From: Sedimentisphaerales bacterium
GTDB taxonomy: Bacteria > Planctomycetota > Phycisphaerae > Sedimentisphaerales > Anaerobacaceae
DNA length: 64,000 bases
NCBI GenBank assembly: GCA_963708075.1
Contig: OY970194.1
Span: 3,936,001 to 4,000,000, forward strand
Direction: 5' to 3'
Shown: positions 6,691 to 24,261 of the stretch, one piece after another
Layout of the letters: each line of letters starts with the position of its first letter
Numbering within the stretch: the stretch's first letter is position 1
The notes under the pieces: generated by a model
What the model was told of the DNA's origin: nothing
Databases searched by the model: none
Seen by the model: the letters and a program-made list of their open reading frames with translations, nothing else
Translations under genes and position numbers: made by a program

Positions 6691-7491
6691 ATGAACACAG
6701 TCCAGGCATACAGATTCTGCGTCCTTCCCTACGCCAACGCCCTTCCCCTCGTCCACTTCATGACAGACGTCTATCCCCCAGCGAAGCTGTTTTACCGTGT
6801 GCCACGATCAGCGGTCGGAGGCTTGTTAGAGGGCGTAGTTGACGCGGCGTTGATTCCCATTGTCGATTGCTTCGCCCATCCCGATCTCGTGATGATTCCG
6901 GGATTGGGCATTTGTGCCGACGGCGACGTTACGAGCGTTCTCCTGCAATGCCGTCGGCCGCTGTCGCAGGTCAGAGTCGTCGGACTTGACCCCGAGTCCA
7001 GAACATCGAATACCCTCGTCCAAGTGCTGATGCGGGACCACTTTCGGATCTCTCATCGCGTTGAATACAGCCTGTGTGATGATGAGGCGGATGCCTGCGT
7101 GTGCATCGGCGATCGCGCCCTGTGTGCGGCGCCGGCGGTGGAAACGTATGATCTCGCCGGGGAATGGAAGAAGATGACCGGCTTACCGTTCGTCTTCGCC
7201 GTCTGGGCTGTGCAGCGGTCGTGCCCTGATCTCGAGGAAATCTCGTGGATTTTGCACCGCGTCAGGGATCGTGGATGCCACGCCATTGGCGAACTGGCAC
7301 AGCTCTGTGCGCAGCGGCTGGGTCTGCCTGAGAACCGTTGCCATGAGTACCTTGCGAATCGCCTGTACTACGATGTGGGGCCCGCGGAATGTGAGGGCAT
7401 GGGCTTGTTCCGAGGTCTCGCCGCGAGCCTCGTCAGACAAGGGGCAGACCACAGACAAGGGCAGAATACCCCAGTCCCCGAGTGGAGTTGA
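6691..7491 (+). CDS. mqnA: Chorismate dehydratase (futalosine pathway)
   Basis: PYANALPL, GICADGDVTSV, SRTS, IGDRAL, DLAGEWKKMTGLPFVFAVW motifs; directly upstream of mqnE/mqnC-type domains. Confidence 0.88.
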   Translation: MNTVQAYRFCVLPYANALPLVHFMTDVYPPAKLFYRVPRSAVGGLLEGVVDAALIPIVDCFAHPDLVMIPGLGICADGDVTSVLLQCRRPLSQVRVVGLDPESRTSNTLVQVLMRDHFRISHRVEYSLCDDEADACVCIGDRALCAAPAVETYDLAGEWKKMTGLPFVFAVWAVQRSCPDLEEISWILHRVRDRGCHAIGELAQLCAQRLGLPENRCHEYLANRLYYDVGPAECEGMGLFRGLAASLVRQGADHRQGQNTPVPEWS

Positions 7492-7492
7492 C

Positions 7493-9670
7493 ATGTTACA
7501 ACAATGGAATGAACGAATCTCCCCGGAAGAGGCGCTGAACCTCTTGACAAAAGCGGACACGGCCGAGCTGATGGCCCGGGCTGATAAGGTCCGCCGGCAA
7601 AGACACGGTGCGAACGTCTACCACGTGCACAGTCTGAACCTGAATCCCACCAATCTATGCGAGAATCGTTGCGGCTTGTGTGCATTCTGGCGCGAAGCCG
7701 GGTCGGGCGAGGCTTATACACTAAGCCTTCAGCAGGTTGAGGAAAGGCTCGAGAGAGCCAGAGGATGGGGACTCACCGACGTTCACATCGTCGGCGGCCT
7801 GAACCGGGAATTGGGCCTTGACTACTATGTCGAGTTGCTTCGCATCACCAAGCGGGTGCTGCCCACGACAGCGATACAAGCCCTGACTGCCGTCGAGGTC
7901 CAGTGGCTTTCGGATCGTGCCGGCAAATCAGTGGCCGAAGTGCTGGCAATGCTGAAGGCAGCCGGCCTGGATGCCCTGCCGGGCGGAGGAGCGGAGATCT
8001 TCTCCACACGGGTCCGAGAGAATATTTGCCCAAAAAAGCTTCCCGCTGATCAATGGCTCCATGTGCACCACATCGCCCACGACCTGGGTATCCCGAGCAA
8101 CGCGACCATGCTCTTCGGACACGTCGAAACCCCGGAAGAGATCGTGGACCATCTATGCAGACTCAGGACTCTGCAGGACCAGACCGGAGGTTTTCAGGCC
8201 TTCTGTCCTCTTCCTTTCCACGCGAAGGGCACGCAGATCGGTGTGGCGCGAGGTCCGGGCGGGCATGCCATCGCCCGGATCGTGGCCCTGGCCCGCATCT
8301 TTCTCGACAACTTCCCGCATGTTCGAGTCCTGGCCAATTTCCTCGACCGCAAGCTGCTGCAGACGTTGCTTTTCTGCGGGGCCGACGACATCGGCGGCAC
8401 CAGCATCGACGAGCAGATCGCTCGCTCAGCCGGAGCTTCCGACGACTGCTCGTTCCACGACCCTGAGGAGATGGCGACTTTCATACGGGAACTTGGACTT
8501 CGTTCGGTACTCACGAGCAGCCTGTATGACCATCGCAGCCGAAGACAACCGCAGGCGCAGGTCCCGTTGCTCGCTTCAAAGGCGGCAAGGGCTTTGCAGA
8601 AAGCAGAGGCTGGACAGCGGCTGAACGCCGAGGAAGCGACATGGCTCCACGATACCCTGCCGTTCTACGAACTGGGACGGATCGCCCATGAGCATCGCCG
8701 GCAAGTCATCGGCGACCAGCGATCCACGTTCATCATCGATAGAAACATCAGCTTCACGAACGTCTGCACCGTCGGATGCAAATTCTGTGCGTACCACAAG
8801 GGGCCCAGGGATGGCGATGCATTCACGATGTCGATTGAAGAGATCGTGCGACTCGTGGAGGAGGCGGCCGGCCTCGGCGCCACCCAGATCATGCTTCAAG
8901 GCGGCCTGAATCCGGCCCTGAGTTTCTCCTGGTATAAGGACATGCTTCGGGCCATCAAGGATCGTGTCCCCGCTGTCTGGCTGCATTCGCTGTCCCCCGC
9001 GGAGGTGCTGTGGCTCGCGCAGCGCTCCCATCTGCCCCTCAGGGACACCCTTGTGCAACTGCGAGAGGCCGGCTTGGATTCGCTACCGGGAGGCGGCGCC
9101 GAGATTCTCGTGGATGAGGTTCGCCAAAGAGTCAGCCCGGCGAAGATCACGACCCCTCAGTGGCTTGAAGTCATGGAGATAGCCCACAGTCTGGGTATGG
9201 GCACGACGGCGACGATGGTCTATGGCCTGGGCGAGACGACAGCCGATCGCGTGCAACACCTGCTGCACGTCCGCGACCTTCAGGATCGCACCGGGGGCTT
9301 CCGGGCCTTCATTCCCTGGAGTTTTCAGTCGAATCACACCCGGCTCTCCGAGCGGCCGCAAACCGGCGTGGATTACCTTCGCATGGTCGCCCTGTCCCGC
9401 CTGGTTTTGGATAATGTTGAGCACATCCAGGCCGGGTGGGTCACCGAGGGACCGTATATGGCCCAGATCGCCCTGACTTTTGGAGCGGACGACTTCGGCG
9501 GCGTCCTGATGGAAGAGAGCGTGGTCAAGGCCACCGGCATCAATCACACCGTGACGGCCGAACAAGTAATCGCCCTGATCGCCGAGACCGGGATGACCGC
9601 CGCCCAGCGAGATACGGAGTACAAGACTCTTCGAACCTTCGACAGGCAAAGGACCCTGAAAAGCGCGTGA
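7493..9670 (+). CDS. mqnE-mqnC: Fused double radical-SAM protein: MqnE-like (aminofutalosine synthase) N-half plus MqnC-like (cyclic dehypoxanthine futalosine synthase) C-half
   Basis: ATG at 7493, about 725 aa, one continuous frame. Two CxxxCxxC motifs (CENRCGLC; CTVGCKFC) and two PGGGAEI motifs. N-half has HIVGG, NATMLFGH, LQDQTGGF; C-half has IDRNI, MLQGG, FIPWSFQ, QAGWVT. Confidence 0.85.
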   Translation: MLQQWNERISPEEALNLLTKADTAELMARADKVRRQRHGANVYHVHSLNLNPTNLCENRCGLCAFWREAGSGEAYTLSLQQVEERLERARGWGLTDVHIVGGLNRELGLDYYVELLRITKRVLPTTAIQALTAVEVQWLSDRAGKSVAEVLAMLKAAGLDALPGGGAEIFSTRVRENICPKKLPADQWLHVHHIAHDLGIPSNATMLFGHVETPEEIVDHLCRLRTLQDQTGGFQAFCPLPFHAKGTQIGVARGPGGHAIARIVALARIFLDNFPHVRVLANFLDRKLLQTLLFCGADDIGGTSIDEQIARSAGASDDCSFHDPEEMATFIRELGLRSVLTSSLYDHRSRRQPQAQVPLLASKAARALQKAEAGQRLNAEEATWLHDTLPFYELGRIAHEHRRQVIGDQRSTFIIDRNISFTNVCTVGCKFCAYHKGPRDGDAFTMSIEEIVRLVEEAAGLGATQIMLQGGLNPALSFSWYKDMLRAIKDRVPAVWLHSLSPAEVLWLAQRSHLPLRDTLVQLREAGLDSLPGGGAEILVDEVRQRVSPAKITTPQWLEVMEIAHSLGMGTTATMVYGLGETTADRVQHLLHVRDLQDRTGGFRAFIPWSFQSNHTRLSERPQTGVDYLRMVALSRLVLDNVEHIQAGWVTEGPYMAQIALTFGADDFGGVLMEESVVKATGINHTVTAEQVIALIAETGMTAAQRDTEYKTLRTFDRQRTLKSA

Positions 9671-9678
9671 CACTGCCA

Positions 9679-11166
9679 ATGACAGCCCATGAGACGGTTC
9701 TACTGACAGGCATCACAGGGTCCATCGGAAGCTGGGTCGCCGGAACGATCCTGCAGGACGGCGGGCGAATCGTGGCCATCGTCCGGGCCGATACCGAGTC
9801 TGCCGCTGCCGCCCGAGTGCGCGAGGCACTGGCGGTCGTTAGCGTCCAAGAGCACGCCGATCATGTCAAGGCGGTGTGCGGGGACATCTGCGACGGCCAG
9901 CTTGTTGGACATCTCATCAGGGGGGAGACGGGAATATCGCACATCGTGCACTGCGCCGGCATGGTGGAGTTCGGGCAGGAGTTCGCGGCGTTGAGCCATC
10001 GAGTCAACGTGGAGGGAACCGCCAACCTGCTGACGCTGGCCGAGAAGCTCAGGGTCCCCTTTTGTCATTTCAGCACCGCCTACGTTGCCGGCGACCGACA
10101 GGGGCGGGTGTTCGAACATGAGACTTCTATGGGTCAGCAGTTCCACAATCCCTATGAGTCTTCCAAGTGCCAGGCCGAGTTGTTGGTCCAAGACTGGGCG
10201 ATGCGCACAGGTCTTGGTGCGTTCATGTTCCGGCCGAGCATCGTTGTCGGGGATAGTCGGCAAGGACGCATCGTCCACTTCGACGGGCTCTACAACTTCA
10301 TGCGCATGCTCGACAGCGTCGCAGGGGCCGTCGGCACGCGAGAGTTCCGTGTCGTAGCCAACCCGGATGCGACGAAGAATCTTGTGCCCGCCGACTACGT
10401 GGCCCGTGCCGCCTGGCACATTATCAGGACAAGTGCTCCCCGGACCTACCATATCACAAATCCTCAGCCAGTGTCGCTTGCAGTGCTCCGGGACATCTTT
10501 GCCGATCTGTTCGCCGTCCCCGGGGCACGGCTTGTGCGGGAGGAGGAATTCCGTCGGAAGAAACCCGATAGATTCGAGTCGATGTATCAAAAAGCGGCCG
10601 TTCAGTATGCCCCGTATCTGGCCGCAGAGCCGGTTTTTGACCGGACGAACACAGACACTGCCCTGCGTGACACTTCCCTGATGCCGCCGGAGATGAATAT
10701 GGCTTTCTTTCAAAAACTGCTGGACTATGCACGAAGAACCAAGTGGGGCAAGGCACACACGGAGCCTCCTGTCATGCTCCCGGGGCGAGAAAGATTCGTG
10801 GAACAGTATTTCGACAGCTTCCTGACCGAGAAGATGCACCAGCAACTGCTGCCCAACCTTAAGCATCTGACCGCAAGCTGCCGGATTGCCGTGGAAGACT
10901 TGCCCGGGCGGTCGTGGTCGCTGAGAATCGACCAGGGCCGGCTTGAGGAGATATCGCAAAATGGCATGGTCTGTCAGTGCACGTTCTCCCTCCACAGCGA
11001 CACCTTCTCGGCGATTGTCGGCGGCAGGCTCGCCCCGCAACAGGCATTCTTTCAGAGGAAGATCCATATCGCAGGCGACATGGAGACGGGCCTGAAATTG
11101 GCCACTGTCCTGGCGGCGTTCTTCAAGAAATGGCCCTACGACATGGAGACGCACCGTGTGGGATAG
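9679..11166 (+). CDS. Thioester/acyl-CoA reductase-type extended SDR fused to a C-terminal SCP2 lipid-binding domain
   Basis: LLTGITGSIG, HCAG, NVEGT, STAYV, YESSK, RPSIVVG; C-terminal GRLAPQQAFFQRKIHIAGDMETGLKL is SCP2-like. Alternative GTG start at 9667 overlaps the upstream stop. Confidence 0.82.
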   Translation: MTAHETVLLTGITGSIGSWVAGTILQDGGRIVAIVRADTESAAAARVREALAVVSVQEHADHVKAVCGDICDGQLVGHLIRGETGISHIVHCAGMVEFGQEFAALSHRVNVEGTANLLTLAEKLRVPFCHFSTAYVAGDRQGRVFEHETSMGQQFHNPYESSKCQAELLVQDWAMRTGLGAFMFRPSIVVGDSRQGRIVHFDGLYNFMRMLDSVAGAVGTREFRVVANPDATKNLVPADYVARAAWHIIRTSAPRTYHITNPQPVSLAVLRDIFADLFAVPGARLVREEEFRRKKPDRFESMYQKAAVQYAPYLAAEPVFDRTNTDTALRDTSLMPPEMNMAFFQKLLDYARRTKWGKAHTEPPVMLPGRERFVEQYFDSFLTEKMHQQLLPNLKHLTASCRIAVEDLPGRSWSLRIDQGRLEEISQNGMVCQCTFSLHSDTFSAIVGGRLAPQQAFFQRKIHIAGDMETGLKLATVLAAFFKKWPYDMETHRVG

Positions 11167-13334
11167 TCTCACGACAATCCTGGCCGACAGAAGTCGATGG
11201 ATCGCCGTGGCCTGCCTGTGCAGCGTCGCGATTCCCGTCTATTGGCTCAGAAATGCCCGCGTCGATAACTCAATCGAGGTGTGGACGGGGACAAGGAGCA
11301 GGACGCACCGCAGCTATCAGCAGTTCCTAGAGAAATACGGGAACGAGGAGTTCGTCGTGATTGCCGGCGAGGCAGAGGACCCGCTCTCCGAGGAGACATT
11401 GGCCTTTCAGGGCGACCTGGCGTCGCGCCTGCGACAGATCGATGGGGTGGAAGGCGTTCTGGATATTACGCAGGCGGCCGCCGCCTTCGAAAAGTACAGG
11501 CCCGAGGACTGGAAAGAGTCTCTCAGCGGCACCGGCTTTTTTCGGAATCTGCTGCTCGGCAAAGATGGACGCACATTCGGCGTCATCGCCTGGCTGCGGA
11601 AGATTGATGATCCCCCTTCGAGAAGGCTCGTGGTCGAAGAGATCGAGTCGGCGGTTGCCCAAGTCGCCGGTGACGGGAGGCAGATGCATCTGGCCGGGAC
11701 GCCGCTATTGAACGTAGCCCTCGACCGCGGCTCCCAGGAAGCATCCCGGCGGATTCTGCCCGCGGCCCTGGCTGTCTCCCTGGTTATTCTGGCGATCGTT
11801 CTGCGACGCGTCAGTGGAGTCATCGCGGTGATGGCCGCGGTGGGCGTGACCACGCTCTGGACTGTTGGCCTGATGGTTCTGGCCGGCAGAACCTTCAACA
11901 TGGTAACGGTGGCTCTCCCTTCCCTGCTGACGGTTCTTTCGCTCTCGGCCGGGATTCACATCGTCTTGCGAATCCAGTCGCTGCTGGCTGACATGGGGGA
12001 CCGCCGCGCCGCCGTGCGCGAGACTATTCGGGAAGTATTGCCGGCGGTTCTTCTATCGAATGTCACCACGGCCATCGGATTCGGCTCCTTGATGATCTCG
12101 GACATGCAGCCTGTCTCGGACTTCGGGTTGTTCGCCGCCGTCGGCATGATGCTCTCATTCCTTTTCAATGCGACCATGGTGCCGGGAATTCTCTCCTGGC
12201 TGCGTCCTGGTGCTATCACAGTCTCTGCGAGAACCGACGCACTGGACCTCGCCCGTGGGGCGGGCCGTCGCATCACGAAGAATCTGGTTCCTGGGCTCCG
12301 CGCTCGTCATACTGGTCGTCTCACTGCTGCTTATGACGGGACTTCGCGTGGAGTCGAATGTGCTGAAGTTCTTCCCGGCCGATTCAAAGGTCCGCCGGGA
12401 TTACCAGTTCGTTGCCGAGCAGCTCACGGGCCTGTACACCATCGAGCTCGATGCCGTGACCGACTCGCAGAACGGGAGCGTCCTGCTCAAGCAGATCGAG
12501 CAGCTAGGCACTGAACTGGCCGCGCGATCCGAGGTGGCTCAGGTGATTCACTACAAAAGTATCGCCACCGCCCTGGACCCAATTCGCCAGTCTGTTTTCG
12601 TCGAGACGGCCAGGGCTTCGGAGAATCCCCTGAAGCTCCTGGCGAAGAAATACCGTCATGCGGACGACGGTCGAATCTCGCTGCGAATGTCGATCCTGGT
12701 GCGTGCAATGTCAGGCACGGACTTCTATGCCTTGATGGATTTCGCACAGCAGGCGGCACAGCGGCTTGAGCCTCCGGCCACATACACGCTGACCGGCGTG
12801 GTCCCGCTGCTGAATTCGGCCCAGCGATCTCTGATCACCACGCAGGTCCGCAGTTTCGCCACAGCGGCAATCACAGTGCTGGCCCTGGTTGGCCTGTTCT
12901 TCTGGTCCTGGAGGGTCTTCCTCGCGGCCGCACTGCCCAATCTGCTCCCGACGGCGATCCTCTTTGCCGCGATGGCGGTTCTGAAGATACCCTTGGACGC
13001 GGCGACAGTCATGATCGCAGGCGTAGCTATCGGCATCGCCGTCGATGATACTTTCCACTTCTTCTCCTGCTACCGCGAGGCGAGGCAATCCGGGCAGGAC
13101 AGCCCGACGGCGATTTACAACAGCTTTCGCACGACCGGACGAGCCATCTTGTTCACGTCCGTCGTCGCCACCGCCGGCTTTGTCATTCTTCTGCTGGCCG
13201 AGTTCAAGCCGATCCAGTACTTTGGCCTTCTGGCCGGCGTGACCATGCTCACAGCCAGTGCGGCCGATTTCCTCGTGCTGCCGGCCTGCGTGGCTTCTGT
13301 GAACCTGTGGCATCGACAAGGGCAAGAACAGTGA
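11156..13334 (+). CDS. MMPL/RND family exporter, split by a +1 frameshift near 12230
   Basis: Two MMPL repeats: LSNVTTAIGFGSL..PVSDFG in ORF 11156-12514 and IAIGIAVDDTFHF..TGRAILFTS..GF in ORF 12168-13334. Removing one A from GAGAACCGAC joins the frames (..SARPTHWTS..). Confidence 0.82.
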
Positions 13335-14413
13335 ACGTGAAATCATCGTTTCTCGTCAGACTTGAGCACGTCCTTCGAATCCACTTCGATGCCAATCGCG
13401 GTGCGCCCTATTGGCTCGAGAAACAGCGTGAGCTTGGGATCGACGCCATCGAACACATTCGAACCATCGAGGACCTCGCCCTCCTCGGGCCTATGGATGA
13501 GCGTGCGCTGTCCGAGCGCCCTATCGAGGATTTCATTCCCAGGGTATTTCGCGAAAACAACGATCATCTTCTCGCCGAGACAGCCGGGACCCTGGGCAGG
13601 CCTAAAACCGCCGTCCACAGAGCGGATGAATTCGAAGCGGCCTTCATCGTGCCATTCGTCAAGGCCGCCGGCAGAGCGGACTTTCCCGAAGGCGGCCACT
13701 GGCTGTTCATCGGGCCGACAGGGCCACACATCATCGGCCGGGCGGCACGGCGGTGCGCCAGAGCCCTTGGCGCCGCGGACGCATTCACGGTGGATTTCGA
13801 TCCGCGATGGGCCAAGAAACTCCCGGCCGGCAGCTTCGCCGCGAAGCGATACCTGGCGCACATCGAGGAACAGGCTTTGGCCGTTCTCGAAGTCCAGAAT
13901 ATCGAGGTGCTCTTCGTGACGCCCGCTGTCTTAAGCAGTCTGACCGAGAGAATCAGCGAGGCGAAGCGCATGGCCATTCGCGGAATCCACCTGGGCGGCA
14001 TGGCAGCCTCGGCCGAGTTCATGCAGCGCACGACGGGACTGTTCCCCAACGCAGTGATCCTGTCAGGCTACGGCAATACTCTGTTTGGAATGATGCCGCA
14101 ACTTTGCTACTCGCATGAGACAGGTTTCGACTACTTCCCGCATGGCGACCGTCTCGTCGTTCGCCTGATCCCACTGTGCGAGGATGGGGACAAGCCGGAA
14201 ACCGCCGCCCATGTCGATTACGGCCGGCGGGGCCGGGTCATGGTGCACCGGCTGGATGAAATGCAGTTTCTGCCGAACCTGCTCGAACGGGACACCGCCG
14301 TACGGATTCCTCCGGAGCCCAGCGCCGCAGCCGACGGCTTCTTCCAGGATGGTCTCCGCGACCCGCAGCCGATCGTCAGCGAAACCATGAAGCCGGCCAT
14401 AGGATTATATTGA
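13331..14413 (+). CDS. GriC/EhpF-like adenylate-forming enzyme (PaaK/LuxE-related aryl-acid activating subunit)
   Basis: HF..RGAPYWLEK..LGID..EDL..PIEDFIPR N-terminus, ETAGTLGRPK P-loop, GPTGPHIIG, DFDPRW, GYGNTLFG, VDYGRRGRV, FLPNLLERD. GTG start overlaps the MMPL stop (GTGA). Confidence 0.7.
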   Translation: MNVKSSFLVRLEHVLRIHFDANRGAPYWLEKQRELGIDAIEHIRTIEDLALLGPMDERALSERPIEDFIPRVFRENNDHLLAETAGTLGRPKTAVHRADEFEAAFIVPFVKAAGRADFPEGGHWLFIGPTGPHIIGRAARRCARALGAADAFTVDFDPRWAKKLPAGSFAAKRYLAHIEEQALAVLEVQNIEVLFVTPAVLSSLTERISEAKRMAIRGIHLGGMAASAEFMQRTTGLFPNAVILSGYGNTLFGMMPQLCYSHETGFDYFPHGDRLVVRLIPLCEDGDKPETAAHVDYGRRGRVMVHRLDEMQFLPNLLERDTAVRIPPEPSAAADGFFQDGLRDPQPIVSETMKPAIGLY

Positions 14414-15123
14414 TGTTGCAAGCTGCATCGGAAGAACATGTGACGTTCCTGAGCGGAGCGGTTCGGCTCAGAGGAGTCCTCTCCTACCCGGAGCAGGCCC
14501 GGCCGGAGCTTGCGGTGCTGTTGTGCTCTCCGCACCCGCACTTTGCCGGTGACATGAACAACAACGTGATCTGCGCCGTCGCCCAACGTCTCGCCGCTCG
14601 CTGCGCGGTCATGCGATTCGATTACCGGGGTGTCGGGGAAAGTGAGATCAGCCTGGGGCCCGACGAGTCGGCCTTTGACTACTGGAATGAGATTGAGGAG
14701 ACGAAGGATTATCGCGATGCCGTCGAGGATGTCGCTGCGGCGGCCCGGGCACTGCTCGCGGCGACGGAGTCTCTCGACGTGGGCCTGTCAGTCGTGGGCT
14801 ATTCGTTCGGTGCGGCCACAGGCATGCTCTTTGCCTGCCACGAGAGCCGCGTGGAGAAGATGGTTGCGATCGCCCCGCCGCTGGGCAAGGTGCCTTTCGA
14901 ATTCCTTTCGGATTGCTGCAAGCCCAGCCTCCATATAGCCGGGAGGAACGACTTCCTGTATTCGGATGAGAAGATGGCCGCGTTTCGTCGGTCCGTTGGA
15001 CCGGCGGCGAGAGTTGTGGTCCTGGATGAGGCGGACCACTTCTTCCGAGGCGACGAGAACTCGGTGGCACGACAAATCGAGGAATATCTGCTTGGTACAA
15101 AAGGAAATCAGCATGGGTCTTGA
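14413..15123 (+). CDS. Alpha/beta-fold hydrolase
   Basis: PHPHFAGDMNNNV, RFDYRGVGES, GYSFG nucleophile elbow, GRNDF, ADHFF; TGATG stop-start overlap. Confidence 0.85.
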   Translation: MLQAASEEHVTFLSGAVRLRGVLSYPEQARPELAVLLCSPHPHFAGDMNNNVICAVAQRLAARCAVMRFDYRGVGESEISLGPDESAFDYWNEIEETKDYRDAVEDVAAAARALLAATESLDVGLSVVGYSFGAATGMLFACHESRVEKMVAIAPPLGKVPFEFLSDCCKPSLHIAGRNDFLYSDEKMAAFRRSVGPAARVVVLDEADHFFRGDENSVARQIEEYLLGTKGNQHGS

Positions 15124-17080
15124 GAAGAAACCCGAGATTCTCGCTCCGGCCGGCACGCTGGATGCGGTCCGCCAGGTGATCGATGCCGGCGCCGACGCTG
15201 TCTACGTCGGCGGCAAGGGTCTCAATATGAGGCAGCATCGGTCAAGCTATAACCTGACCGAGCCGGAGATCGCCGAGGCAATCGAGCTCGTTCACCGCGA
15301 GGGCAAGAGGCTCTATTTCACGCTGAATAGTCTGATCTTCGATTCGCAGCTCCCGCAGTTGCGGGAAGTTCTGGCCATGCTCGGCCGGCTCGGCCCCGAC
15401 GCCATCATCCTCCAGGATCTGGCCGTGGCAAGCCTGGCTCGGGAGATTTGCGTGCACGTGCCGCTCCACGCCAGCACGATGATGAACGTGCACAATGCGG
15501 AAACCGCCCTGGCGCTGAAGATGATGGGATTTGTGCGGGTCATTCCGTCCCGCGATATCCCGCTCCACGAGATCCGTCGTATCGGCGAGCGCTCGGGCCT
15601 GGAGATGGAGTGTTTCGTCCATGGCGATATGTGCATCTCGCAAAGCTCGCAATGCTACCTCAGCGGGATTCTCTTTGGCGAAAGCGCCAACTGCGGCCGC
15701 TGCATGAAGCCGTGCCGGTGGCAGTGGAAACTGGCCGTCCGTCAAGGCGACGGCGAATCGCTCGATCATGGAGAGGGCTACCTGCTGGCCCGCAAGGACC
15801 TGTGCATGCTGCCGCACATTCCGGCACTGGTCCAAAATGGCATCGCTGCCCTGAAGATCGAGGGCCGGATGCGGACGGCGGAGTTCCTGGCCCCTGTCGT
15901 GGCTCTTTATCGCAAGGCGATTGACTCCTATTTTGAAGATCCCGTGGGCTACACCACGAACGCGGGCGATATCCACAACCTCATCTCGCAACGCGTCCGC
16001 GAGATGACCACCGCGCACATGTTCGCCAATCCCGGCCGCGAGGGCGTTGACACGACGGGCAAGCGAGAACCCCGTTTCTTCAGCCATGCCTCCCCGGCCG
16101 CGCAGTTGACGGTGGGACAAGACGTGGCTCCGCACACCCCTGCAAAGTGGCCCGAACTGATCGTTCATGTCTCAACCGTGGCCGGGGCTGAAGCGGCTGC
16201 CGGCGCCGGCGCGAACGCGATCTACTTTTGTGGCGAAGGCTTCTGTCTGCACGGGGGAGTCCCGAGTGCGGAGGCCATCGGCAGCTTCGCCCGCAAGGCT
16301 GCTCAGAACAGCATTCGTATTGGTGTGATGATGCCGCACGTTTGCGATGAGCGGGACATGGCGGAGTGGAGGCGCCGCCTGCACGAACTCATCGCCTGGG
16401 GGAATCTCACCGTCGGTGTGTCGAATCTGGGCAGCCTGCAGATGGCTCGTGAGGAAAGGTGGCGTGACATCTTGACGGATTACCCGCTGAACACGGCCAA
16501 TTCCATTGCTGTCGATGAGCTTTCGACCCTTGGGGCACAGCGCGTCACGGCCTCGGCGGAGCTCACTTTTCAGCAGTTGTCTGCGTTCACAAAGGCGGTG
16601 CGGATGCCCATCGAGATCATCGGCCAAGGCCCAGTTTGTGGCATGCTGCTGGAGCATTGCGTGTTGGCGACTGCCGGCGGGCAGAACCCGCAGGGTGTTT
16701 GTTCGATGCCGTGCCGACGGGGTGTCTACGCACTGGAGGACACAGCATCACAGATCTTTCCGCTGGAGACGGACCGTCGTTGCCGCAATCATATCTTCAC
16801 GCCGGCGGATGTCTGCGTGTTGCCCAATCTCTCGCGGATGCTGTTGCTGGGCATCTCCGGCTTGCGGATTGAAGGCCACTTGGACAAGCCTGAAACGGTC
16901 GCAATCGTCACGCAAATCTATCGTGAAGCGATGGACTGTTTGAGAAATGGCCAAGCCATCGATGTCGCCGACGGGCTCTCGAAGATCTCCGCCGCCACAG
17001 AGCGCCCGCTCAGCGACGGGCCTTTTGACTTCCAGTCCATCAGGGTGATAGACAAGGAGAAAGAGCTTGCCCGAACATGA
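15113..17080 (+). CDS. Tandem U32-family (two-domain) Fe-S protein, probable O2-independent hydroxylase
   Basis: PEILAPAG, GADAVYVG, HAST, FVHGDMC with Cx6Cx15Cx3C, LKIEGRMR. A second U32-like domain from about 16150 has IYFCGEGFC, SNLG, LNTAN, SAELT, EHC-x13-C-x3-C, LRIEG. Confidence 0.82.
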   Translation: MGLEKKPEILAPAGTLDAVRQVIDAGADAVYVGGKGLNMRQHRSSYNLTEPEIAEAIELVHREGKRLYFTLNSLIFDSQLPQLREVLAMLGRLGPDAIILQDLAVASLAREICVHVPLHASTMMNVHNAETALALKMMGFVRVIPSRDIPLHEIRRIGERSGLEMECFVHGDMCISQSSQCYLSGILFGESANCGRCMKPCRWQWKLAVRQGDGESLDHGEGYLLARKDLCMLPHIPALVQNGIAALKIEGRMRTAEFLAPVVALYRKAIDSYFEDPVGYTTNAGDIHNLISQRVREMTTAHMFANPGREGVDTTGKREPRFFSHASPAAQLTVGQDVAPHTPAKWPELIVHVSTVAGAEAAAGAGANAIYFCGEGFCLHGGVPSAEAIGSFARKAAQNSIRIGVMMPHVCDERDMAEWRRRLHELIAWGNLTVGVSNLGSLQMAREERWRDILTDYPLNTANSIAVDELSTLGAQRVTASAELTFQQLSAFTKAVRMPIEIIGQGPVCGMLLEHCVLATAGGQNPQGVCSMPCRRGVYALEDTASQIFPLETDRRCRNHIFTPADVCVLPNLSRMLLLGISGLRIEGHLDKPETVAIVTQIYREAMDCLRNGQAIDVADGLSKISAATERPLSDGPFDFQSIRVIDKEKELART

Positions 17081-18359
17081 GCCCATAGGCCCGCAGGCGA
17101 TTCTGGCCAAGAAGCAGCAATACCTGATTCCCTGCTCGTACCATTTCTACAGGGATCCGCCTCAAATCGTGCGCGGCCAGGGGATCTACGTGTACGATTC
17201 CGCCGGCCGCAGGTACATGGACCTCTACTCCGGCGTGAGCGTTCATGCGCTGGGCCACTGCCATCCGGAGATGGTCGAGGCCATCTGCCAGCAAGTCAGA
17301 ACCCTGCAACATACAAGCACGATCTACCTGACAGAGCCCATTGTGAACCTGGCCGAGCAACTGGCGAAGGTGCTTCCCGGGCAGATTCGCAGGACTTTCT
17401 TCTGCTGCAGCGGCAGTGAAGCCAATGAAGGGGCGGCTTTGCTGGCGACGCTCCATACCGGCCGAAGCGAGTTCCTGGCCTTCCAGAATGGCTTGCACGG
17501 CCGCACGAAGTTGGGCATGAGCCTGACAGGCCTTGGTCTTTGGCGCACCGATCCCAACCCTGTCGGCGGGATTGTGCACGTGCCGCCGCCGCACTGCCGA
17601 AGTTGCCCGTTTGGGCAAAGTCTCGGCCAATGCCAATATCAGTGTGTCGCCGCTGTGGAGACCGCCATTCGCACGGCCACCAGCGGCAAGCCCGCCGCCA
17701 TGTTCGTCGAGCCCGTGCAAGGCAATGGCGGCATCATGGTCCCGCCGCCGGAGTACTTCCCCAAACTGCGTGAGGTCCTGAACCGGTACGGCATGCTGCT
17801 CATCGCTGATGAAGTCCAGACGGGTTTTGGACGCACCGGCAGAATGTTCGCTATGGAGCATTGGAACATCGCGCCCGATATTGTCACGGGCGGCAAGGCG
17901 CTGGGCGGGGGCACACCGGTGGGTTTCTTCTCCACGACCGACCAAATCGCCGCTAGTTATACCAGGCCCGGCGCATCGACCTTCGGCGGCAATCCCGTGA
18001 CGGCTCAGGCAGGCCTCAAGTTCCTGGAGATCCTGCAGCGTCAAGCCCTGGTGGACCACTGTGCCCGGATGGGAACCCTGTTACAGGGTCGCCTCAAGAA
18101 AATGGCTGAGAAGTCCGATATGGTCTCGGACGTTCGGGGTCTCGGATTGATGGTGGGGGTTGAGATCGCCGGGCATGGAACGCTATCTGCCGCCGAATGT
18201 ACGGATCGTATCCTAGAACGCATGAAAGATGTGGGGTATTTGCTGGGCAAGACCGGCCCCAGCCGCAATGTCCTGACATGGATGCCCCCTCTGATCATTC
18301 GACAAGAAGAGCTGATGGAGGCTATCGACGCCCTTGAGAAGACTCTCCAAAGTCTGTGA
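17067..18359 (+). CDS. Class III PLP-dependent aminotransferase
   Basis: AAGGAG RBS with TTG start; LGHCHP, SGSEANE, HGRT, EPVQGNGG, IADEVQTGFGRTG, GKALGGG (PLP Lys), STFGGNP. Confidence 0.9.
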   Translation: MPEHEPIGPQAILAKKQQYLIPCSYHFYRDPPQIVRGQGIYVYDSAGRRYMDLYSGVSVHALGHCHPEMVEAICQQVRTLQHTSTIYLTEPIVNLAEQLAKVLPGQIRRTFFCCSGSEANEGAALLATLHTGRSEFLAFQNGLHGRTKLGMSLTGLGLWRTDPNPVGGIVHVPPPHCRSCPFGQSLGQCQYQCVAAVETAIRTATSGKPAAMFVEPVQGNGGIMVPPPEYFPKLREVLNRYGMLLIADEVQTGFGRTGRMFAMEHWNIAPDIVTGGKALGGGTPVGFFSTTDQIAASYTRPGASTFGGNPVTAQAGLKFLEILQRQALVDHCARMGTLLQGRLKKMAEKSDMVSDVRGLGLMVGVEIAGHGTLSAAECTDRILERMKDVGYLLGKTGPSRNVLTWMPPLIIRQEELMEAIDALEKTLQSL

Positions 18360-19329
18360 CTCCCGGAGGCAGCCCGTTGCCAGGCTGCTCCTGGCAATAG
18401 CGGTATTCGCCATTCTCCTGGCGAGCTGCGCCTCATTCAAGCACCTGACGCTGGTGAGCAACACATTCCCGAGCGCCAAGGATTGTGGCAAATGCCACGT
18501 TGAGATCTACCATGAGTGGTCGCAGTCGGACCATGCTCACGCCTATACGAACCTGCACGTTCGGGCAGCAACAGATGATTACAGGTTCGAGAGCTGCCTG
18601 AGCTGCCACTCGCCCGAACCCACGCTGACGGATCGCGCTCCCACCGTTCGGGCGGCCGGCCGTGAGGAAGGGGTCACCTGCGTCGCCTGTCACCTCGATC
18701 AGGGTGCTCTTGCGGGTCCGCTGGAGCCGACCGGCAAAGTTCATCCGCATCCGATCAGCGTTCGGCCGGAAATCTACCACAGCAGTGGCATTTGCGGCCG
18801 ATGTCATGAAGGCACCATGACGCAGTGGGAATCAGTCCATGTGGAAAAACGAACTTGCCAACAGTGCCACATGGAATCCGTCACACGCAAGGTCACCCAG
18901 GCCACGGGCGGAATATCCAATGTCCTGGTGGCCATGGAGAAACAGGTCCCCCAGAGACGCCACAAGTTCTGCATTCTCGGCGACGCGCAATCACAAGAAC
19001 TCGTCACCCTGACGATCGAATCCTTGGGCGGCACGCTCGATGTTGTGGTCGAGAACAACCTGCCCCACAGCCTTCCGACAGGCGATTTCGGCTTTCGAAT
19101 CGTGACTCTGGAAGTCTTCGGCATCGACGCCGGCGGCAAGTCGATTCTCGCCGGAAGCTGGGAACTGGCTGGGGAATCCTCGACCGCCATTCCTGCGCAA
19201 GGGGCACGAGCGTGGTCATTGGATATCGGCCCCGGCTGCAAAACGGCCCGCGCCGTCCTGACTCGACGCAGCTACGACCAGGAGGCTCTCGTGCTGGCGG
19301 AGGCACAGGTGGAGGTGGCGAAGCCATGA
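18334..19329 (+). CDS. Pentaheme cytochrome c lipoprotein (c554-like) with C-terminal beta domain
   Basis: Lipobox ILLASC; five CxxCH (CGKCH, CLSCH, CVACH, CGRCH, CQQCH); EWSQSDH and PHSLPTG motifs. TTG start uncertain. Confidence 0.82.
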   Translation: MRRLSKVCDSRRQPVARLLLAIAVFAILLASCASFKHLTLVSNTFPSAKDCGKCHVEIYHEWSQSDHAHAYTNLHVRAATDDYRFESCLSCHSPEPTLTDRAPTVRAAGREEGVTCVACHLDQGALAGPLEPTGKVHPHPISVRPEIYHSSGICGRCHEGTMTQWESVHVEKRTCQQCHMESVTRKVTQATGGISNVLVAMEKQVPQRRHKFCILGDAQSQELVTLTIESLGGTLDVVVENNLPHSLPTGDFGFRIVTLEVFGIDAGGKSILAGSWELAGESSTAIPAQGARAWSLDIGPGCKTARAVLTRRSYDQEALVLAEAQVEVAKP

Positions 19330-21308
19330 AGAAGGAGACGATTCGTCGCTTCACCCGGCCGGAATTAGGGCTACACTGGAGCCAGGCAGTGCTATACATC
19401 CTGCTGTTCGGCTCGGGCACGCTTCTGCTGGTCGGGCGAATCCTCGATCATCCGCTCGCCTCTCAGAAGTCTCTCGGGGCGCTCCACCGCGTTGCGGGCG
19501 TCGCACTTGTCGTACTCCTGGGCCAGGCTCTGTTGCTCAGTATCGTTGCGGACAACTTCCGCAGCTTCTGGCGCACGCTGCGAGAGTGTCTGCGCTGGCG
19601 ATGGGGTGACGTCGTCTGGCTCGTCAAAGTCCCGTTCAATGCCATCACGCGACGAGTGAAGCTGCCGCCCGCGGATCGCTTCAACGCGGGCCAGAAGCTC
19701 CACGTGCTGGTCATCGTCTGTGTGCTGGTCGGCTTCAGCATCTCGGGCCTGCTGATGATGCTCATACCCGGAGCGCTCGGGCCATGGATCATCCACCTGA
19801 TCTGTTTCATCCCGGCCGCCGCTTTCCTGGCGCTGCATCTGTTCCTGTCACTCCTGAATCCCGAGACTCGAAAGGCCCTCCCGTCGATCTTCTCGGGCCA
19901 CATGTCGTTGGAACTCGCTCGACGACACCACGGTCTGTGGGCAGGACAACCCGACTCGGCGGAACACCCATCCTATGTATCCCTCCGGATGGTGCTCATC
20001 ATGATCGCTCTGGTAATGGTCGTCGCCGGGGTCTTCGCGATATGGTATGGACCGGCAAAAGTCTCCGGCGTTGTGGCAGCCACAATCACCCGCCACGGCA
20101 CAAATGCAATCACGCCGGCGTCTCTTTCCAAGGTCCATGACGGTGACAACGCGGATACCGACAACTGCGCATCTTGCCATTTGCCGATGGCATCGCCGCC
20201 TTCGGAGAAATGCCTTGTCTGCCACACGGAGATCCAGGAGCGAATGACGGCCGGATCGGGCTTCCATGGCAAGATTGCCGGCTCGTGCAGACAATGCCAC
20301 ACGGAGCACAAAGGCACCGAGGCCATCCCCATATCACTGGACCGACAGGCATTCAACCACGGCAACACCAACTTTCCGCTCGATGGCAAACACCAGGCCG
20401 TGCCATGTGAGAAGTGCCACGAAAGGACCGGCCCGGACACTGCCGGCAGAATGCAGTACACCGGGCTTGACTACAAGAGTTGCATAAATTGCCACTACAA
20501 CCCGCACAATGACCCGCGCGCCAGCCACTGCCTCGAATGCCACACTATGCAAGGCTGGGACCGCGATAATCTGACGTTCGATCATGATCGTGACAGCCAA
20601 TTCCCACTCCTGGGTGCACACGCCAAGCCGGATTGCGAGAAATGTCATCCCCGCCAGACAACAAATGGCCGGGTGCAGGTCCGCCTGTTTGACGTTGGCA
20701 AGTCCTGTCAGGATTGCCATGCCGACCCGCATGCCGGCCAGATGAGCTCTGCGTGCGGCACCTGCCACACGGAGACAGGCTGGACCGGGAACAACCTCGT
20801 ATTCTCGCATGATAAGCACTCATCGTTCCATCTGGATAGGCTTCATTCCTCAGCGAGTTGCGATGACTGCCATGGCCGACAGGCCAGGCGTTATCGTCCG
20901 CTGCCACGCGAATGCGACACGTGCCATACGATCCAACAGGCCGCCATGCAGGGAACCGCACGGGTGCTCTCCGGGCCCCCTGATCCTCACAATGACCGAC
21001 TCTCCTGCACGGATTGTCACGATGTGAACACACCAAGACAACGCCAGGAGGAGTTCGCCGCCAGGTGTGCAACCTGTCACAATTCCCGATATGGCGCCCT
21101 GTTCTACTCCTGGGCGAATGCTCTTGATGAAAACCGTGCTTCAATCAAACAGAACCTGAAACGCATCGATGATCCGAATGACGCGAGAAGGCTCCGGCTC
21201 GAGCAAATCCTGGAAGATGCGGCCGCAGCAGGTTTCCACAACCTGAATCTGACTCAGGAGATCTTGCGGGCAGAAACTCCGACACATCCAGAGAACGTCA
21301 ACAAATAA
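19326..21308 (+). CDS. Cytochrome b (FdnI-like, membrane) fused to a 13-heme cytochrome c domain
   Basis: ATGA overlap start MKKETIRRF; LHW, LHR, RFNAGQK, IH..LH histidines in four TM helices, a fifth TM, then 13 CxxCH motifs counted, partly in repeated FxH..FPLxGxH..CxxCH..CxxCHxxPH..CxxCH..GW units. Confidence 0.85.
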   Translation: MKKETIRRFTRPELGLHWSQAVLYILLFGSGTLLLVGRILDHPLASQKSLGALHRVAGVALVVLLGQALLLSIVADNFRSFWRTLRECLRWRWGDVVWLVKVPFNAITRRVKLPPADRFNAGQKLHVLVIVCVLVGFSISGLLMMLIPGALGPWIIHLICFIPAAAFLALHLFLSLLNPETRKALPSIFSGHMSLELARRHHGLWAGQPDSAEHPSYVSLRMVLIMIALVMVVAGVFAIWYGPAKVSGVVAATITRHGTNAITPASLSKVHDGDNADTDNCASCHLPMASPPSEKCLVCHTEIQERMTAGSGFHGKIAGSCRQCHTEHKGTEAIPISLDRQAFNHGNTNFPLDGKHQAVPCEKCHERTGPDTAGRMQYTGLDYKSCINCHYNPHNDPRASHCLECHTMQGWDRDNLTFDHDRDSQFPLLGAHAKPDCEKCHPRQTTNGRVQVRLFDVGKSCQDCHADPHAGQMSSACGTCHTETGWTGNNLVFSHDKHSSFHLDRLHSSASCDDCHGRQARRYRPLPRECDTCHTIQQAAMQGTARVLSGPPDPHNDRLSCTDCHDVNTPRQRQEEFAARCATCHNSRYGALFYSWANALDENRASIKQNLKRIDDPNDARRLRLEQILEDAAAAGFHNLNLTQEILRAETPTHPENVNK

Positions 21309-21453
21309 GTAGCACATCCAAGGGCCTGAAATTGGGCGGATAGGCTTCCTACCCGCTCTGTCACGGGCAGCAAGATTCACCGCCGGCCGGAAAACAGCGC
21401 AGAGATACAGGATATGCTCTATAATGCGAGAGGCCTATGTTCGGAGATCGTCC

Positions 21454-24261
21454 ATGAGAACACTGTGTGTTGTCCTTGGCGTACTTGCAGTCTACTCGTC
21501 GGCGGGGATGGCGCAACAGGCGCCCATTGTGATCGAGAATCCTCACTTGCGATACACAATATCTTCCGAAGGAAAGAACCTTGCCTTTGTCGATCGTGCA
21601 ACAGGTGTTGACTACCTGATACAGGACGCACCGTCCGTGTGCGCTCTGGCTCGCTGCAAAGGCGTAGAGTACCCTGCGACATCCGCTCGATTTGCGGATG
21701 GCCGGTTGACCATTGAGTTCAGCCAGGTGGACGGGAAAGCCGTTCTTGGCGTCATACCCCGGGACTCATACATTCAGTTCACCGTTGATTCGGTGAGCGG
21801 CGACAATATCGAATCGATCATCTTTCTGAACGTTCCGCTTACGCTGCAAGGCAGGCCCGATGAGTCTTTTGGCGCATGCGCTTTGTCTCTTAACCTGATC
21901 ACCCGCGTGGACCAACTGCCGGCACTTCAGGCGAACCTGCGAGCGTCATGCTATGGCAAATTCGGTATGGACGGGGCCAAGGTTGCTATCGTCGGGATGC
22001 CGATGCCCAGAATGCTGGAGGCTCTCAGGCATGTATTGACCGATGCGGATGAGATGCCCCATTGTACGGTCGCAGGCCCCTGGGCGCACGATGTCCCGTT
22101 CAACCATGGCTCCTACTTGTTCAATTTCGGCTCGCTTACGGATTCGAACGTGGACGAATGGATAGCCATGGCCAGGAACCTCGGGGTGACCCAGATCGAC
22201 AATCACGGTGGCGGAGGTTTCTTCCGGTTCGGTGACTTCGTTCTGAACAACGAGAAATGGCCCGACGGATGGGATGCGTATCGTCGGATTGTGAACCGCC
22301 TTCATGACGCCGGAATCGGGTCTATCTTCCATACGTACGCGTTCTTCATCGATAAACAATCGAAGTATGTCCGCCCGGTTCCAGACAAACGGCTTGACGC
22401 CTTTCGAGCCTTCACACTCGCCGCGGATATCAGCGCCGACGCCACAGAGATCACCGTTGCCGAATCCACGCAAGCCATGACGACCGTCACGGGCTTCTTT
22501 GAGCACAACAGCGTCATCCTTCATGTGGGTGACGAACTTGTTGCTTTCGGCGCCGTGAGCCAGGAGCCCCCCTGGCGATTCACGAAGGTCCAGCGAGGCG
22601 CGTTCGGGACCAGGGCAGCAGGACATGAGAAGGGGGCGAAGGCCCGCCACCTCAAGGAGAGCTTCGGTCTTCTCGTGCCGGATCCTGAATCGACGCTCTT
22701 CGAAGAGATCGCGAGGAACCACGCCGAGATCGTGAACTCCTGCGGGTTCGACGGCATCTACCTCGACGCCATCGACGGCAGCAGTATTCTGCGCGGTCCG
22801 GACGAGTGCTGGTACTGGGCGGACAAATTCGTCTTTGAGATCCAGAAGCATCTTCAGAAACCGGTGGGCATGGAGATGAGTGCCATGTGGCACCATTTCT
22901 GGCAGTATCGGACCCGCTGGCAGGCGTGGGACTATCCACAGCGTGGTCACAAACGCTTCATCGACCTGCACGCGGACTCCGTCAATGGCGGCCTCCTGCT
23001 GCCTCTGCATCTCGGCTGGTGGAATTTCCAGCACTTCAACCCACCGCAGGTCGAGCCGACCTATCCGGATGTGATCGAGTATCTCGGGGCCAAGCTCATC
23101 GGCTGGGACGCGGGAATCTCGCTTACCGGTGAGATCGACCAGGCCCGGCTCTCTGCGGTTCCGCTTTTCCGTCGAGCGGTCGATATCCTCCGTACGTGCG
23201 AGGAGCTCCGTCGAGACAATGCCTTCGACGAGACAATCAAAGCCCAATTGCGCCGGCCGGGAAAAGAGTTCTCGCTGGTTCGCGATAGTAGCGGGAAGTG
23301 GCGATTCCGCCCAGTTGTCCATGAATCACATGTGATCTCGTCTGCGGAGCCCTGGAGCCTCTCCTGGACGGTAGACAATCCCTTCATGGAGCAGCCGGCG
23401 CGATTTCGCCTTGAAGCCCTCACGGCCGCAGGTTCGTATGATGATCCAAATAACATCGTCCTGGCCGACCTCTCTGAGCCAAACCAGTTTGCGGGGTCGC
23501 CTCGTACCGCCGGCGGAGTCACCGGATCACTGTCGGAGGCACCGGATGGAGTCAGGCAGGCGGGCGTATTCACGGCAGCCAATTCCGGCAAGGTACCGCG
23601 CAATGCCGCATGGGCCAGGCTGGACCGCAAGCTCGAACCCTGCCTCAACCTGAAGGGCCGTGAGGCGATAGGCGTCTGGGTGGAGGGTGATGGCCGTGGG
23701 CAGATCCTCGGCATTCGGCTCGAGAGCCCCCGCCACATTTCCTTTGGTGCCGTGGCGGACCACTATATCACGGTTGACTTTACCGGCCGACGACTGTTCA
23801 CGCTCGTCGAAACAGAATCAGCCCGCTGGAGTGACTATGTCTGGAATGACGGCAAAGGGCTTTATAACGTCTACCGCGAGACCATCGACTTCGGCACGGT
23901 TGAATCCGTGGGCATCTGGTACAACAATCTCCCGGAGGGTCAGCAAGCACGGTGTGTCATCGGGCCCGTCAAAGCACTGCCAATGGTTGCCTGTACTGTG
24001 AGGAACCCTGCGGTGACAATCAACGGCAAGACCATAACCTTTCCGGTGGAAATGCCATCGGGCGGCTATCTGGAACTCAGCACAACCGGTGACTGCATGC
24101 TCTATGGGCCAAAGGGCGAGGAGATCGCCAACGTATCACCAAAGGGCCCGATTCCCTTGCTGTCGCCCGGGAAGAATCAGATCCAGTTCTCGGCCGATGC
24201 AGCCGATGGGCCTGCCCCGCGCGTGAGACTCACGATCAGCTCACATGGGCAACCTCTCTAA
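21454..24261 (+). CDS. Large secreted protein, putative glycoside hydrolase-like TIM barrel of unassigned family
   Basis: TATAAT at 21420, GGAG RBS, signal peptide MRTLCVVLGVLAVYSSAGMA; KWPDGW..IVNRLHDAGI and GFDGIYLDAIDG resemble clan GH-D style barrels. Confidence 0.5.
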   Translation: MRTLCVVLGVLAVYSSAGMAQQAPIVIENPHLRYTISSEGKNLAFVDRATGVDYLIQDAPSVCALARCKGVEYPATSARFADGRLTIEFSQVDGKAVLGVIPRDSYIQFTVDSVSGDNIESIIFLNVPLTLQGRPDESFGACALSLNLITRVDQLPALQANLRASCYGKFGMDGAKVAIVGMPMPRMLEALRHVLTDADEMPHCTVAGPWAHDVPFNHGSYLFNFGSLTDSNVDEWIAMARNLGVTQIDNHGGGGFFRFGDFVLNNEKWPDGWDAYRRIVNRLHDAGIGSIFHTYAFFIDKQSKYVRPVPDKRLDAFRAFTLAADISADATEITVAESTQAMTTVTGFFEHNSVILHVGDELVAFGAVSQEPPWRFTKVQRGAFGTRAAGHEKGAKARHLKESFGLLVPDPESTLFEEIARNHAEIVNSCGFDGIYLDAIDGSSILRGPDECWYWADKFVFEIQKHLQKPVGMEMSAMWHHFWQYRTRWQAWDYPQRGHKRFIDLHADSVNGGLLLPLHLGWWNFQHFNPPQVEPTYPDVIEYLGAKLIGWDAGISLTGEIDQARLSAVPLFRRAVDILRTCEELRRDNAFDETIKAQLRRPGKEFSLVRDSSGKWRFRPVVHESHVISSAEPWSLSWTVDNPFMEQPARFRLEALTAAGSYDDPNNIVLADLSEPNQFAGSPRTAGGVTGSLSEAPDGVRQAGVFTAANSGKVPRNAAWARLDRKLEPCLNLKGREAIGVWVEGDGRGQILGIRLESPRHISFGAVADHYITVDFTGRRLFTLVETESARWSDYVWNDGKGLYNVYRETIDFGTVESVGIWYNNLPEGQQARCVIGPVKALPMVACTVRNPAVTINGKTITFPVEMPSGGYLELSTTGDCMLYGPKGEEIANVSPKGPIPLLSPGKNQIQFSADAADGPAPRVRLTISSHGQPL

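Follow-up and report, generated by a model that had tools for sequence, protein, structure and literature searches.

A ten-gene operon lies on the + strand, from 6691 to 21308, of the window, by which we mean the whole 64,000-nucleotide stretch of Sedimentisphaerales DNA analysed here (contig OY970194.1, positions 3,936,001 to 4,000,000). Judging from sequence comparison, we hold with moderate confidence that this operon encodes the synthesis and export of an N-alkyl amide of a futalosine-derived aryl acid, a quinone-like compound in which a fatty-amine tail replaces the prenyl chain. The enzymes at issue are an EhpF-type adenylating protein (the ligase), an R-type thioester reductase of the short-chain dehydrogenase/reductase (SDR) type that carries an SCP2 lipid-binding domain (the reductase), a serine hydrolase and a class III aminotransferase. 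They are encoded together with genes of the futalosine menaquinone pathway (mqn), a tandem U32 protein, a predicted MMPL exporter and two cytochromes. The system is neither a GriC/GriD reductase nor the canonical futalosine pathway, and its description was not found in a literature search that covered few subscription papers and no supplements.

In the proposed route, MqnA, MqnE, an unlinked methylthioadenosine (MTA) nucleosidase and MqnC would yield cyclic dehypoxanthine futalosine, which would be converted to 1,4-dihydroxy-6-naphthoate where the cluster contains an MqnD paralogue. The reductase would reduce a long-chain acyl group, supplied by general metabolism on acyl carrier protein (ACP) or coenzyme A, to the aldehyde, and the aminotransferase would turn the aldehyde into a fatty amine. 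The ligase would adenylate the ring carboxyl, and the serine hydrolase would accept the aroyl group and hand it to the amine, taking the place of the acyl-accepting site of GriD. Finally, the U32 protein would hydroxylate or oxidise the ring, and the MMPL protein would export the product to the site of the cytochromes; clades without the aminotransferase would make an ester or a glycosylated alcohol. The presence of SCP2 and MMPL points to a long-chain product, and a fatty-amine amide would solve the problem of a missing thioester while giving SCP2, MMPL and the hydrolase roles.

We favour this route on the basis of the association of the hydrolase with the ligase (24 of 24 genomes), the occurrence of the reductase beside polyketide synthase (PKS) and MMPL genes, the locus L129, the swap of a PigE-like aminotransferase into one operon clade, and the precedents of TamH, TabE/TabA and ClxA. 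According to excerpts of PMC9594044 and bioRxiv 10.1101/2025.08.11.669332, TamH and TabE/TabA convert acyl-ACP to fatty amines by means of a reductase and a transaminase; excerpts of PMC8341465 and PMC12519233 describe PigE as combining transaminase activity with thioester reduction and ClxA as forming aryl amides and esters. The operon shares with the tambjamine (TamH, TabE/TabA) and prodigiosin (PigE) systems, as far as these excerpts go, the combination of thioester reductase and class III transaminase. It differs from them in having no dedicated ACP or fatty-acid ligase and a reductase of another family, with SCP2, and in that its amine would become an aryl-acid amide.

The ligase and its partners

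An earlier note on this DNA, made by a model from the sequence alone, had named an adenylation-type protein, an R-type reductase and a class III aminotransferase. The three open reading frames (ORFs) were found on the + strand where it had placed them (Table 1), and family and/or fold matches agree with all three identities. As it had also stated, the operon genes gave no match to a carrier-protein or aldehyde dehydrogenase (ALDH) family in Pfam and NCBIfam scans. Its gene list holds for these enzymes and passes over the hydrolase, U32, MMPL, mqn and cytochrome genes, although they matter. The ANL fold that it expected of the ligase and the link to futalosine were likewise borne out.

Sequence match and predicted model place the ligase in the EhpF family, with an EhpF-type ANL fold. 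It matches EhpF with E 3.5e-36 across residues 12-360 (profile E 4.4e-48; 28% identity), and Foldseek aligns its model (predicted local distance difference test, pLDDT, 93.9) with EhpF (3hgu/3hgv/3l2k) at a template modelling (TM) score of 0.80. PaaK-group enzymes, including NatL2, AjiA1 and ClxA, are the next structural neighbours (TM about 0.62-0.69), and LuxE is not among the top Foldseek matches listed. NatL2, AjiA1 and ClxA, however, have 400-437 amino acids (aa) against the 360 of the ligase and share 16-17% identity with it, and in the operon a separate hydrolase is proposed for the transfer. EhpF lacks the ANL C-terminal domain, and the lengths fit a half-size ANL protein, with about 350-366 aa for the ligase/EhpF type versus about 430 aa. 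Conserved motifs comprise the P-loop (T84-G86-G89) and E319-R320-D321. The operon shares a short ANL protein of this family with the two-component aryl-carboxylate reductases of grixazone (GriC/GriD) and phenazine (EhpF/EhpG) synthesis, but the constant partners of the ligase are a serine hydrolase and an R-type SDR-SCP2, often with MMPL, and not a GriD/EhpG-type ALDH.

A genome scan returned 113 ligase relatives, the best 80 of which gave 79 loci; these loci served to build hidden Markov models (HMMs), and 39 of them have at least 6.5 kb on both sides (full-flank loci). Phylum-wide counts refer to a sample of 251 genomes, in which a close ligase is a match with E below 1e-60 and the hydrolase and reductase thresholds were chosen after inspecting the match lists. 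A ligase relative occurs in 79 genomes of this sample and a close one in 25. The most constant partner of the ligase is the hydrolase rather than the reductase. At E<1e-45, the hydrolase is found in 24 of the 251 genomes, all 24 with a close ligase, even where the two are unlinked (G101), and the 25th genome with a close ligase holds a weaker, adjacent hydrolase. The count leaves out weaker matches in another 31 genomes; in two of these (G062, G174) the hydrolase adjoins a ligase. The reductase (E<=3e-75), on the other hand, occurs in 45 genomes, of which 22 have a close ligase and 23 do not.

Across the 79 loci, the hydrolase is present in 76, the reductase or SCP2 in 67, the aminotransferase in 50, a lipoprotein with a CGC.H motif in 42, MMPL in 37, an MqnD-like gene in 35, U32 in 22, and MqnA and MqnE/C in 12 each. 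Any mqn gene occurs in 45 loci, which span several lineages and several gene orders. The full-flank loci all contain reductase and hydrolase, with the aminotransferase in 29 and any mqn gene in 25; the co-occurrence of the three genes singled out by the earlier note therefore extends to 29 of these 39 loci. No GriD-type ALDH was found at any of the 79 loci with an HMM built from proteins of six loci of a more distant ligase tier. Among 12 chosen loci of that tier, an ALDH gene adjoins the ligase at 10, and reductase, hydrolase and aminotransferase are absent from all 12. This distant Planctomycetota clade retains the partner seen in the GriC/GriD arrangement (excerpts of PMC10179220 and PMC11278526). 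The exclusivity of ALDH and SDR counts only once, because the close and distant tiers represent one split in the ligase tree. A GriD encoded elsewhere was ruled out, as the window genome gave no match to the GriD-type HMM and none to LuxC. Several loci of the distant EhpF clade (L093-L104) also contain an iron-alcohol dehydrogenase, a sodium:solute symporter, PQQ-type propellers, a radical SAM protein and a flavin halogenase-like protein.

The closest structures to the reductase model are terminal R domains of PKS and nonribosomal peptide synthetases (MxaA, TM about 0.8), and R domains of carboxylic acid reductases (CAR) are among its structural relatives. In profile comparison MxaA scores E 5e-50 versus about 1e-17 for epimerases, by which a sugar epimerase was ruled out; TIGR01746 stays under its cut-off. 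The motifs TGxxGxxG, S132-T133 and Y159xxxK163 are conserved, as expected of an extended SDR with an intact S/T-Y-K triad. An R-type SDR requires a thioester substrate. The reductase has no conserved Cys, and neither the operon nor 112 flanking proteins gave a PP-binding carrier match; nor did the flanking proteins include a recurrent prenyl-, acyl-carrier or acyltransferase gene. Phosphopantetheinyl carriers do adjoin the reductase orthologues L134 and L136. The family is large, with 7,841 proteins at E<=1e-30 in a representative search.

Among 14 reductase loci outside known operons, 13 are without ligase or hydrolase, and L137 has divergent versions of both. Four of the 13 contain the MMPL family of the operon, one another MMPL, and three PfaA-like PKS/ACP genes. 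Eight nest among ligase-linked reductases (SH-aLRT support 98), and an approximately unbiased (AU) test rejects the ligase-linked reductases as a single clade (p 9e-5), both on a quick tree. At L129 the order is PKS, phosphopantetheinyl transferase, Rieske oxygenase, FabG, reductase, aminotransferase, AMP-ligase and condensation domain; an MMPL gene of the same family is found close by. By analogy, this is the layout of a fatty-amine-plus-acid amide pathway, in which ligase and condensation domain would occupy the place of ligase and hydrolase. As a separate observation, L129 and L139 (G148:C3 about 581000-605000), with a PfaA-like PKS and a GSA-like aminotransferase, form a candidate N-alkyl amide lipid cluster. 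Family f9 has the reductase without a close ligase in 17 of 17 sampled genomes, and four of the six f9 best-hit loci that were fetched (L125-L128) show a two-gene MMPL-reductase unit.

The window aminotransferase belongs to a 51-row clade (SH-aLRT 99) that keeps the pyridoxal phosphate (PLP) lysine K277 and is separate from the PigE/TamH subfamily. A second subfamily, of 7 rows, has been swapped into one operon clade; in six of six scanned proteins, from L071 and L107-L111, the PigE aminotransferase domain is the best model (E 1e-112 to 1e-121), below its full-length cut-off. In that clade the aminotransferase adjoins the reductase, and most loci have neither MqnD nor U32 in the vicinity. A variant without aminotransferase and MqnD paralogue (L037, L038, L042, L043, L047, L063, L072, L091) contains a radical SAM fusion of the ArsS type and, in most cases, a glycosyltransferase resembling HpnB. 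Relocated aminotransferase orthologues were ruled out for this ArsS clade, since the 39-42% matches in five of five tested genomes belong to a different subfamily.

Futalosine genes and the ring carboxyl

MqnA, MqnE, the MTA nucleosidase and MqnC are all encoded in the window genome, which is 92.8% complete and in one contig (G000). The mqnA, mqnE and mqnC genes lie in the operon; the genes for the nucleosidase, MenG and two MenA-like prenyltransferases lie elsewhere, unlinked. The operon MqnA is the only VitK2_biosynth protein of the genome, and the MqnE-MqnC fusion, with two CxxxCxxC motifs, represents its only mqnE and mqnC copies. Genome searches gave no match to MqnD, UbiD/MqnL, MqnP or MenB; with MenD also far below cut-off, the classical men pathway was rejected as a source of the head group. 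Twelve related genomes are alike in this respect (UbiD 0/12, MqnP 0/12, at most one VitK2_biosynth protein), and UbiD was found in 34 of 36 other genomes compared. UbiD and MqnP are missing as well from two unrelated genomes with mqnA/E/C/D in the operon (G267, G062), so that operon mqn genes without a match to either decarboxylase or MqnP occur in three lineages, the 13-genome clade of the window and these two. A third unrelated genome, G269, keeps UbiD and has an MqnP-like gene below cut-off. In the canonical pathway, the late steps comprise prenylation, methylation and decarboxylation (excerpt of PMC3914697). We infer that the operon takes the aryl acid with its carboxyl carbon retained. 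Compared with the canonical pathway (MqnA-E), the window lineage has the early enzymes, but MqnD, UbiD/MqnL and MqnP were not found and MqnE and MqnC are fused, as a single 725-aa protein (7493-9670 in the window) in the clade of the window. The MenA-like prenyltransferases and MenG (L080:6217-7320, L081:6497-7429, L115:6611-7300) could serve quinone salvage.

Three VitK2_biosynth proteins are present in 19 of the 20 genomes whose cluster includes an MqnD-like gene, which argues for a dedicated MqnD paralogue in the operon. This paralogue and the U32 protein are near-alternatives: among the 79 loci, 19 have U32 only, 32 MqnD only, 3 both and 25 neither. The U32 protein conserves E166, H170, C174, C181, C197 and C201, an iron-sulfur (Fe-S) cysteine motif; for the role of U32 proteins and the function of this motif we draw on an excerpt of PMC10990095. 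Within the prephenate-dependent U32 hydroxylases (UbiU/V, TrhP, RlhA), no named-subfamily orthology emerges from the scores (bits/cut-off: TrhP 209/534, UbiU 179/440, UbiV 61/275), and the SCP2 domain of the reductase reaches 42.5 bits with the UbiT model, whose cut-off is 46.9. The operon thus resembles UbiT-UbiU-UbiV in having an SCP2 domain and two U32 domains with Cys motifs. In contrast to that system, its U32 pair is fused, its SCP2 is fused to a reductase, U32 is limited to 22 of 79 loci, and the three models all remain below cut-off on the operon proteins. Seven anammox-family genomes (G101, a single contig, G130, G200, G210, G228, G245 and G157) contain only MqnA, beside MqnC, with no MqnD match and with UbiD kept. 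Among the genomes searched, those that had lost MqnD while retaining MqnA have an operon of the U32 type.

Alternative products and implications

Several points weigh against the N-alkyl amide. The 13 genomes of the window clade are kin and not independent, and most genomes are incomplete metagenome-assembled genomes. The aryl acid of the window is uncertain, since there is no MqnD in the genome, and may be cyclic dehypoxanthine futalosine instead of a naphthoate; prenylation could still take place, because two MenA-like prenyltransferases and MenG have been kept. For Atu1826-like hydrolases, we know of no acyltransferase role that can be cited. Within the full-flank loci, hydrolase and reductase are equally constant (both in 39 of 39). 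Distances of the ligase are also correlated with those of the reductase (rho 0.77, 73 loci), a result of little weight because shared descent would be expected to produce it. All characterised EhpF/GriC relatives supply a reductase (excerpt of PMC10179220). At five of the 13 reductase loci without a ligase, the neighbouring genes are uninformative. The window aminotransferase is not PigE-like, has Asn at the position of the Glu switch present in many class III enzymes and is under every NCBIfam cut-off shown, so that its reaction type is only inferred; it could be a lyase or racemase. It may also act on the head group: one 14-row clade lost the aminotransferase and the MqnD paralogue together while keeping ligase, reductase and hydrolase, and MqnD-like or U32 genes accompany the aminotransferase at 47 of the 50 loci where it occurs, which links it to the head group no less than to the tail.

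The earlier note had put forward that the ligase adenylates a futalosine-derived acid, which the SDR, in place of GriD, reduces to an aldehyde for amination to an aminomethyl-arene. Such a route would be in keeping with the EhpF fold and the GriC/GriD precedent (PMC10179220, in excerpt), with the CAR R domains among the relatives of the reductase, and with the presence of the reductase in every full-flank locus and its distance correlation with the ligase. The GriD-type ALDH, moreover, is absent from all 79 close loci and adjacent in 10 of the 12 distant ones, which are without the SDR. While the absence of GriD thus stands, its replacement by the SDR is less secure, as the exclusivity is one tree split and the reductase does without a close ligase in 23 of 45 genomes, also beside a fatty-chain PKS. 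No carrier protein or conserved Cys would provide the R-domain thioester, SCP2, MMPL and the invariant hydrolase would be left without a role, and there would be no membrane anchor where MqnP is missing. With the hydrolase (24 of 24) and not the reductase (22 of 45) as the constant partner of the ligase, we regard the aminomethyl product as unlikely. The second suggestion of that note, in which the aryl acid is coupled with a fatty amine or a fatty alcohol, appears from sequence to fit the comparative evidence better. If the alcohol is the one coupled, the reductase would supply it for esterification with the aryl acid, while the PLP enzyme would act on the head group (the 4-oxo group or the open-chain ribose aldehyde of cyclic dehypoxanthine futalosine) to give an amino-naphthol or amino-polyol ester. 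The joint loss of aminotransferase and MqnD paralogue and the 47 of 50 loci agree with this, and ClxA-type ligases can form esters (PMC12519233, in excerpt). We nevertheless consider it distinctly improbable, as in the PigE-like clade aminotransferase and reductase adjoin each other, in most cases with neither MqnD nor U32 nearby, and L129 pairs reductase and aminotransferase without mqn genes.

The trio of hydrolase, synthetase and reductase also resembles LuxD/E/C, and 14 of the 39 full-flank loci show no mqn gene. One could thus imagine a LuxCDE-like fatty-acid reductase, in which the hydrolase frees a fatty acid that the ligase activates and the SDR reduces on the way to fatty alcohols or amines; the mqn genes would then have no part in this pathway. 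This is very improbable in light of the top Foldseek matches listed, which include EhpF and the PaaK group but not LuxE, of the mqn genes in 45 of 79 loci across lineages and gene orders, and of the three VitK2_biosynth proteins in 19 of 20 cluster-MqnD genomes.

To our knowledge, respiratory quinones are anchored by isoprenoid chains. If the N-alkyl amide is the product, a futalosine branch in which the 6-carboxyl is retained and bears a fatty amine would constitute a different design of membrane electron carrier, and the quinone-like lipid would be a possible biomarker. An EhpF-type half-ligase would then be partnered by a serine hydrolase, not a reductase, and U32 enzymes would gain a new class of substrate. 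The operon occurs in 14 genomes of the families f32 and f75, and five of the five tested carry hydrazine synthase; the operon is thus shared with anammox bacteria, and the proposal is testable in anammox biomass. Their loci contain, with varying completeness, reductase, SCP2, MMPL, ligase, U32, aminotransferase and cytochromes. As a tentative and rather doubtful extension, anammox bacteria and many other Planctomycetota might make an as yet unrecognised, non-isoprenoid respiratory quinone. It would be a futalosine-derived naphthoquinone that is hydroxylated by U32 and has a fatty amine, possibly a ladderane amine in anammox bacteria, as the tail of its carboxamide; MMPL would export this quinone, and the cytochrome b and multihaem c proteins of the operon would cycle it. 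In the window lineage it would be the sole product of the futalosine genes, with a U32-type operon component replacing MqnD.

Operon layout and further observations

The ten genes (Table 1) are separated by gaps of +8 to -26 bases, and close relatives of the genome carry the labels Sedimentisphaerales or Phycisphaerales. The MMPL gene of the window is split by one extra base near 12231-12232 relative to three relatives. This base is missing from a near-identical contig of another run (X3), and both an assembly error and a strain-level frameshift are possible.

Table 1. Genes of the operon, with positions in the window
Product	Position	Strand	Basis
MqnA-type chorismate dehydratase	6691..7491	+	PF02621 E 4.9e-39; top PDB matches are chorismate dehydratases
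MqnE-MqnC radical SAM fusion	7493..9670	+	TIGR03700 best over residues 6-346, TIGR03699 best over 375-712
Stand-alone R-type thioester-reductase SDR with SCP2 lipid-binding domain	9679..11166	+	NAD_binding_4 E 1.7e-36; C-terminal SCP2 E 1.3e-14
MMPL/RND lipid exporter, predicted	11156..13334	+	Pfam match; one ORF in close relatives
EhpF/GriC/ThnN-family adenylating protein, short ANL enzyme, 360 aa	13331..14413	+	Sequence and fold
Alpha/beta-hydrolase, Atu1826-like, Ser132-Asp181-His210	14410..15123	+	Pfam, conserved catalytic motif; acyltransferase role proposed
Tandem U32 (UbiU/UbiV-like) Fe-S protein	15113..17080	+	PF01136 twice; prephenate-dependent hydroxylase role proposed
Class III PLP aminotransferase, cluster-specific subfamily	17067..18359	+	Aminotran_3 E 4.3e-102; K277, EPxxGNGG, RNVLT
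Pentahaem c-type cytochrome, lipoprotein-like signal	18334..19329	+	
Cytochrome b561-like membrane domain fused to 13-haem c-type domain	19326..21308	+	

Directly 3' of the operon lies a 945-aa ORF (21424-24261) without a Pfam or NCBIfam match. The lipoprotein with the conserved CGC.H motif, which belongs to no Pfam family (L034:13387-14490 and 41 other loci), retrieved only hypothetical proteins in an atlas search; it and the pentahaem cytochrome are mutually exclusive, occurring in 42 and 16 loci, respectively, and never together. Tailoring of hopanoid side chains, by analogy with HpnO/HpnN, was ruled out for the operon, as no squalene-hopene cyclase scored over cut-off in the genome. An ebo-like cluster at L083 (G000:C1 about 6818000-6822500) encodes an EboC-type UbiA, a TatD-like protein, a dehydroquinate (DHQ) synthase-like protein and a phosphodiesterase.

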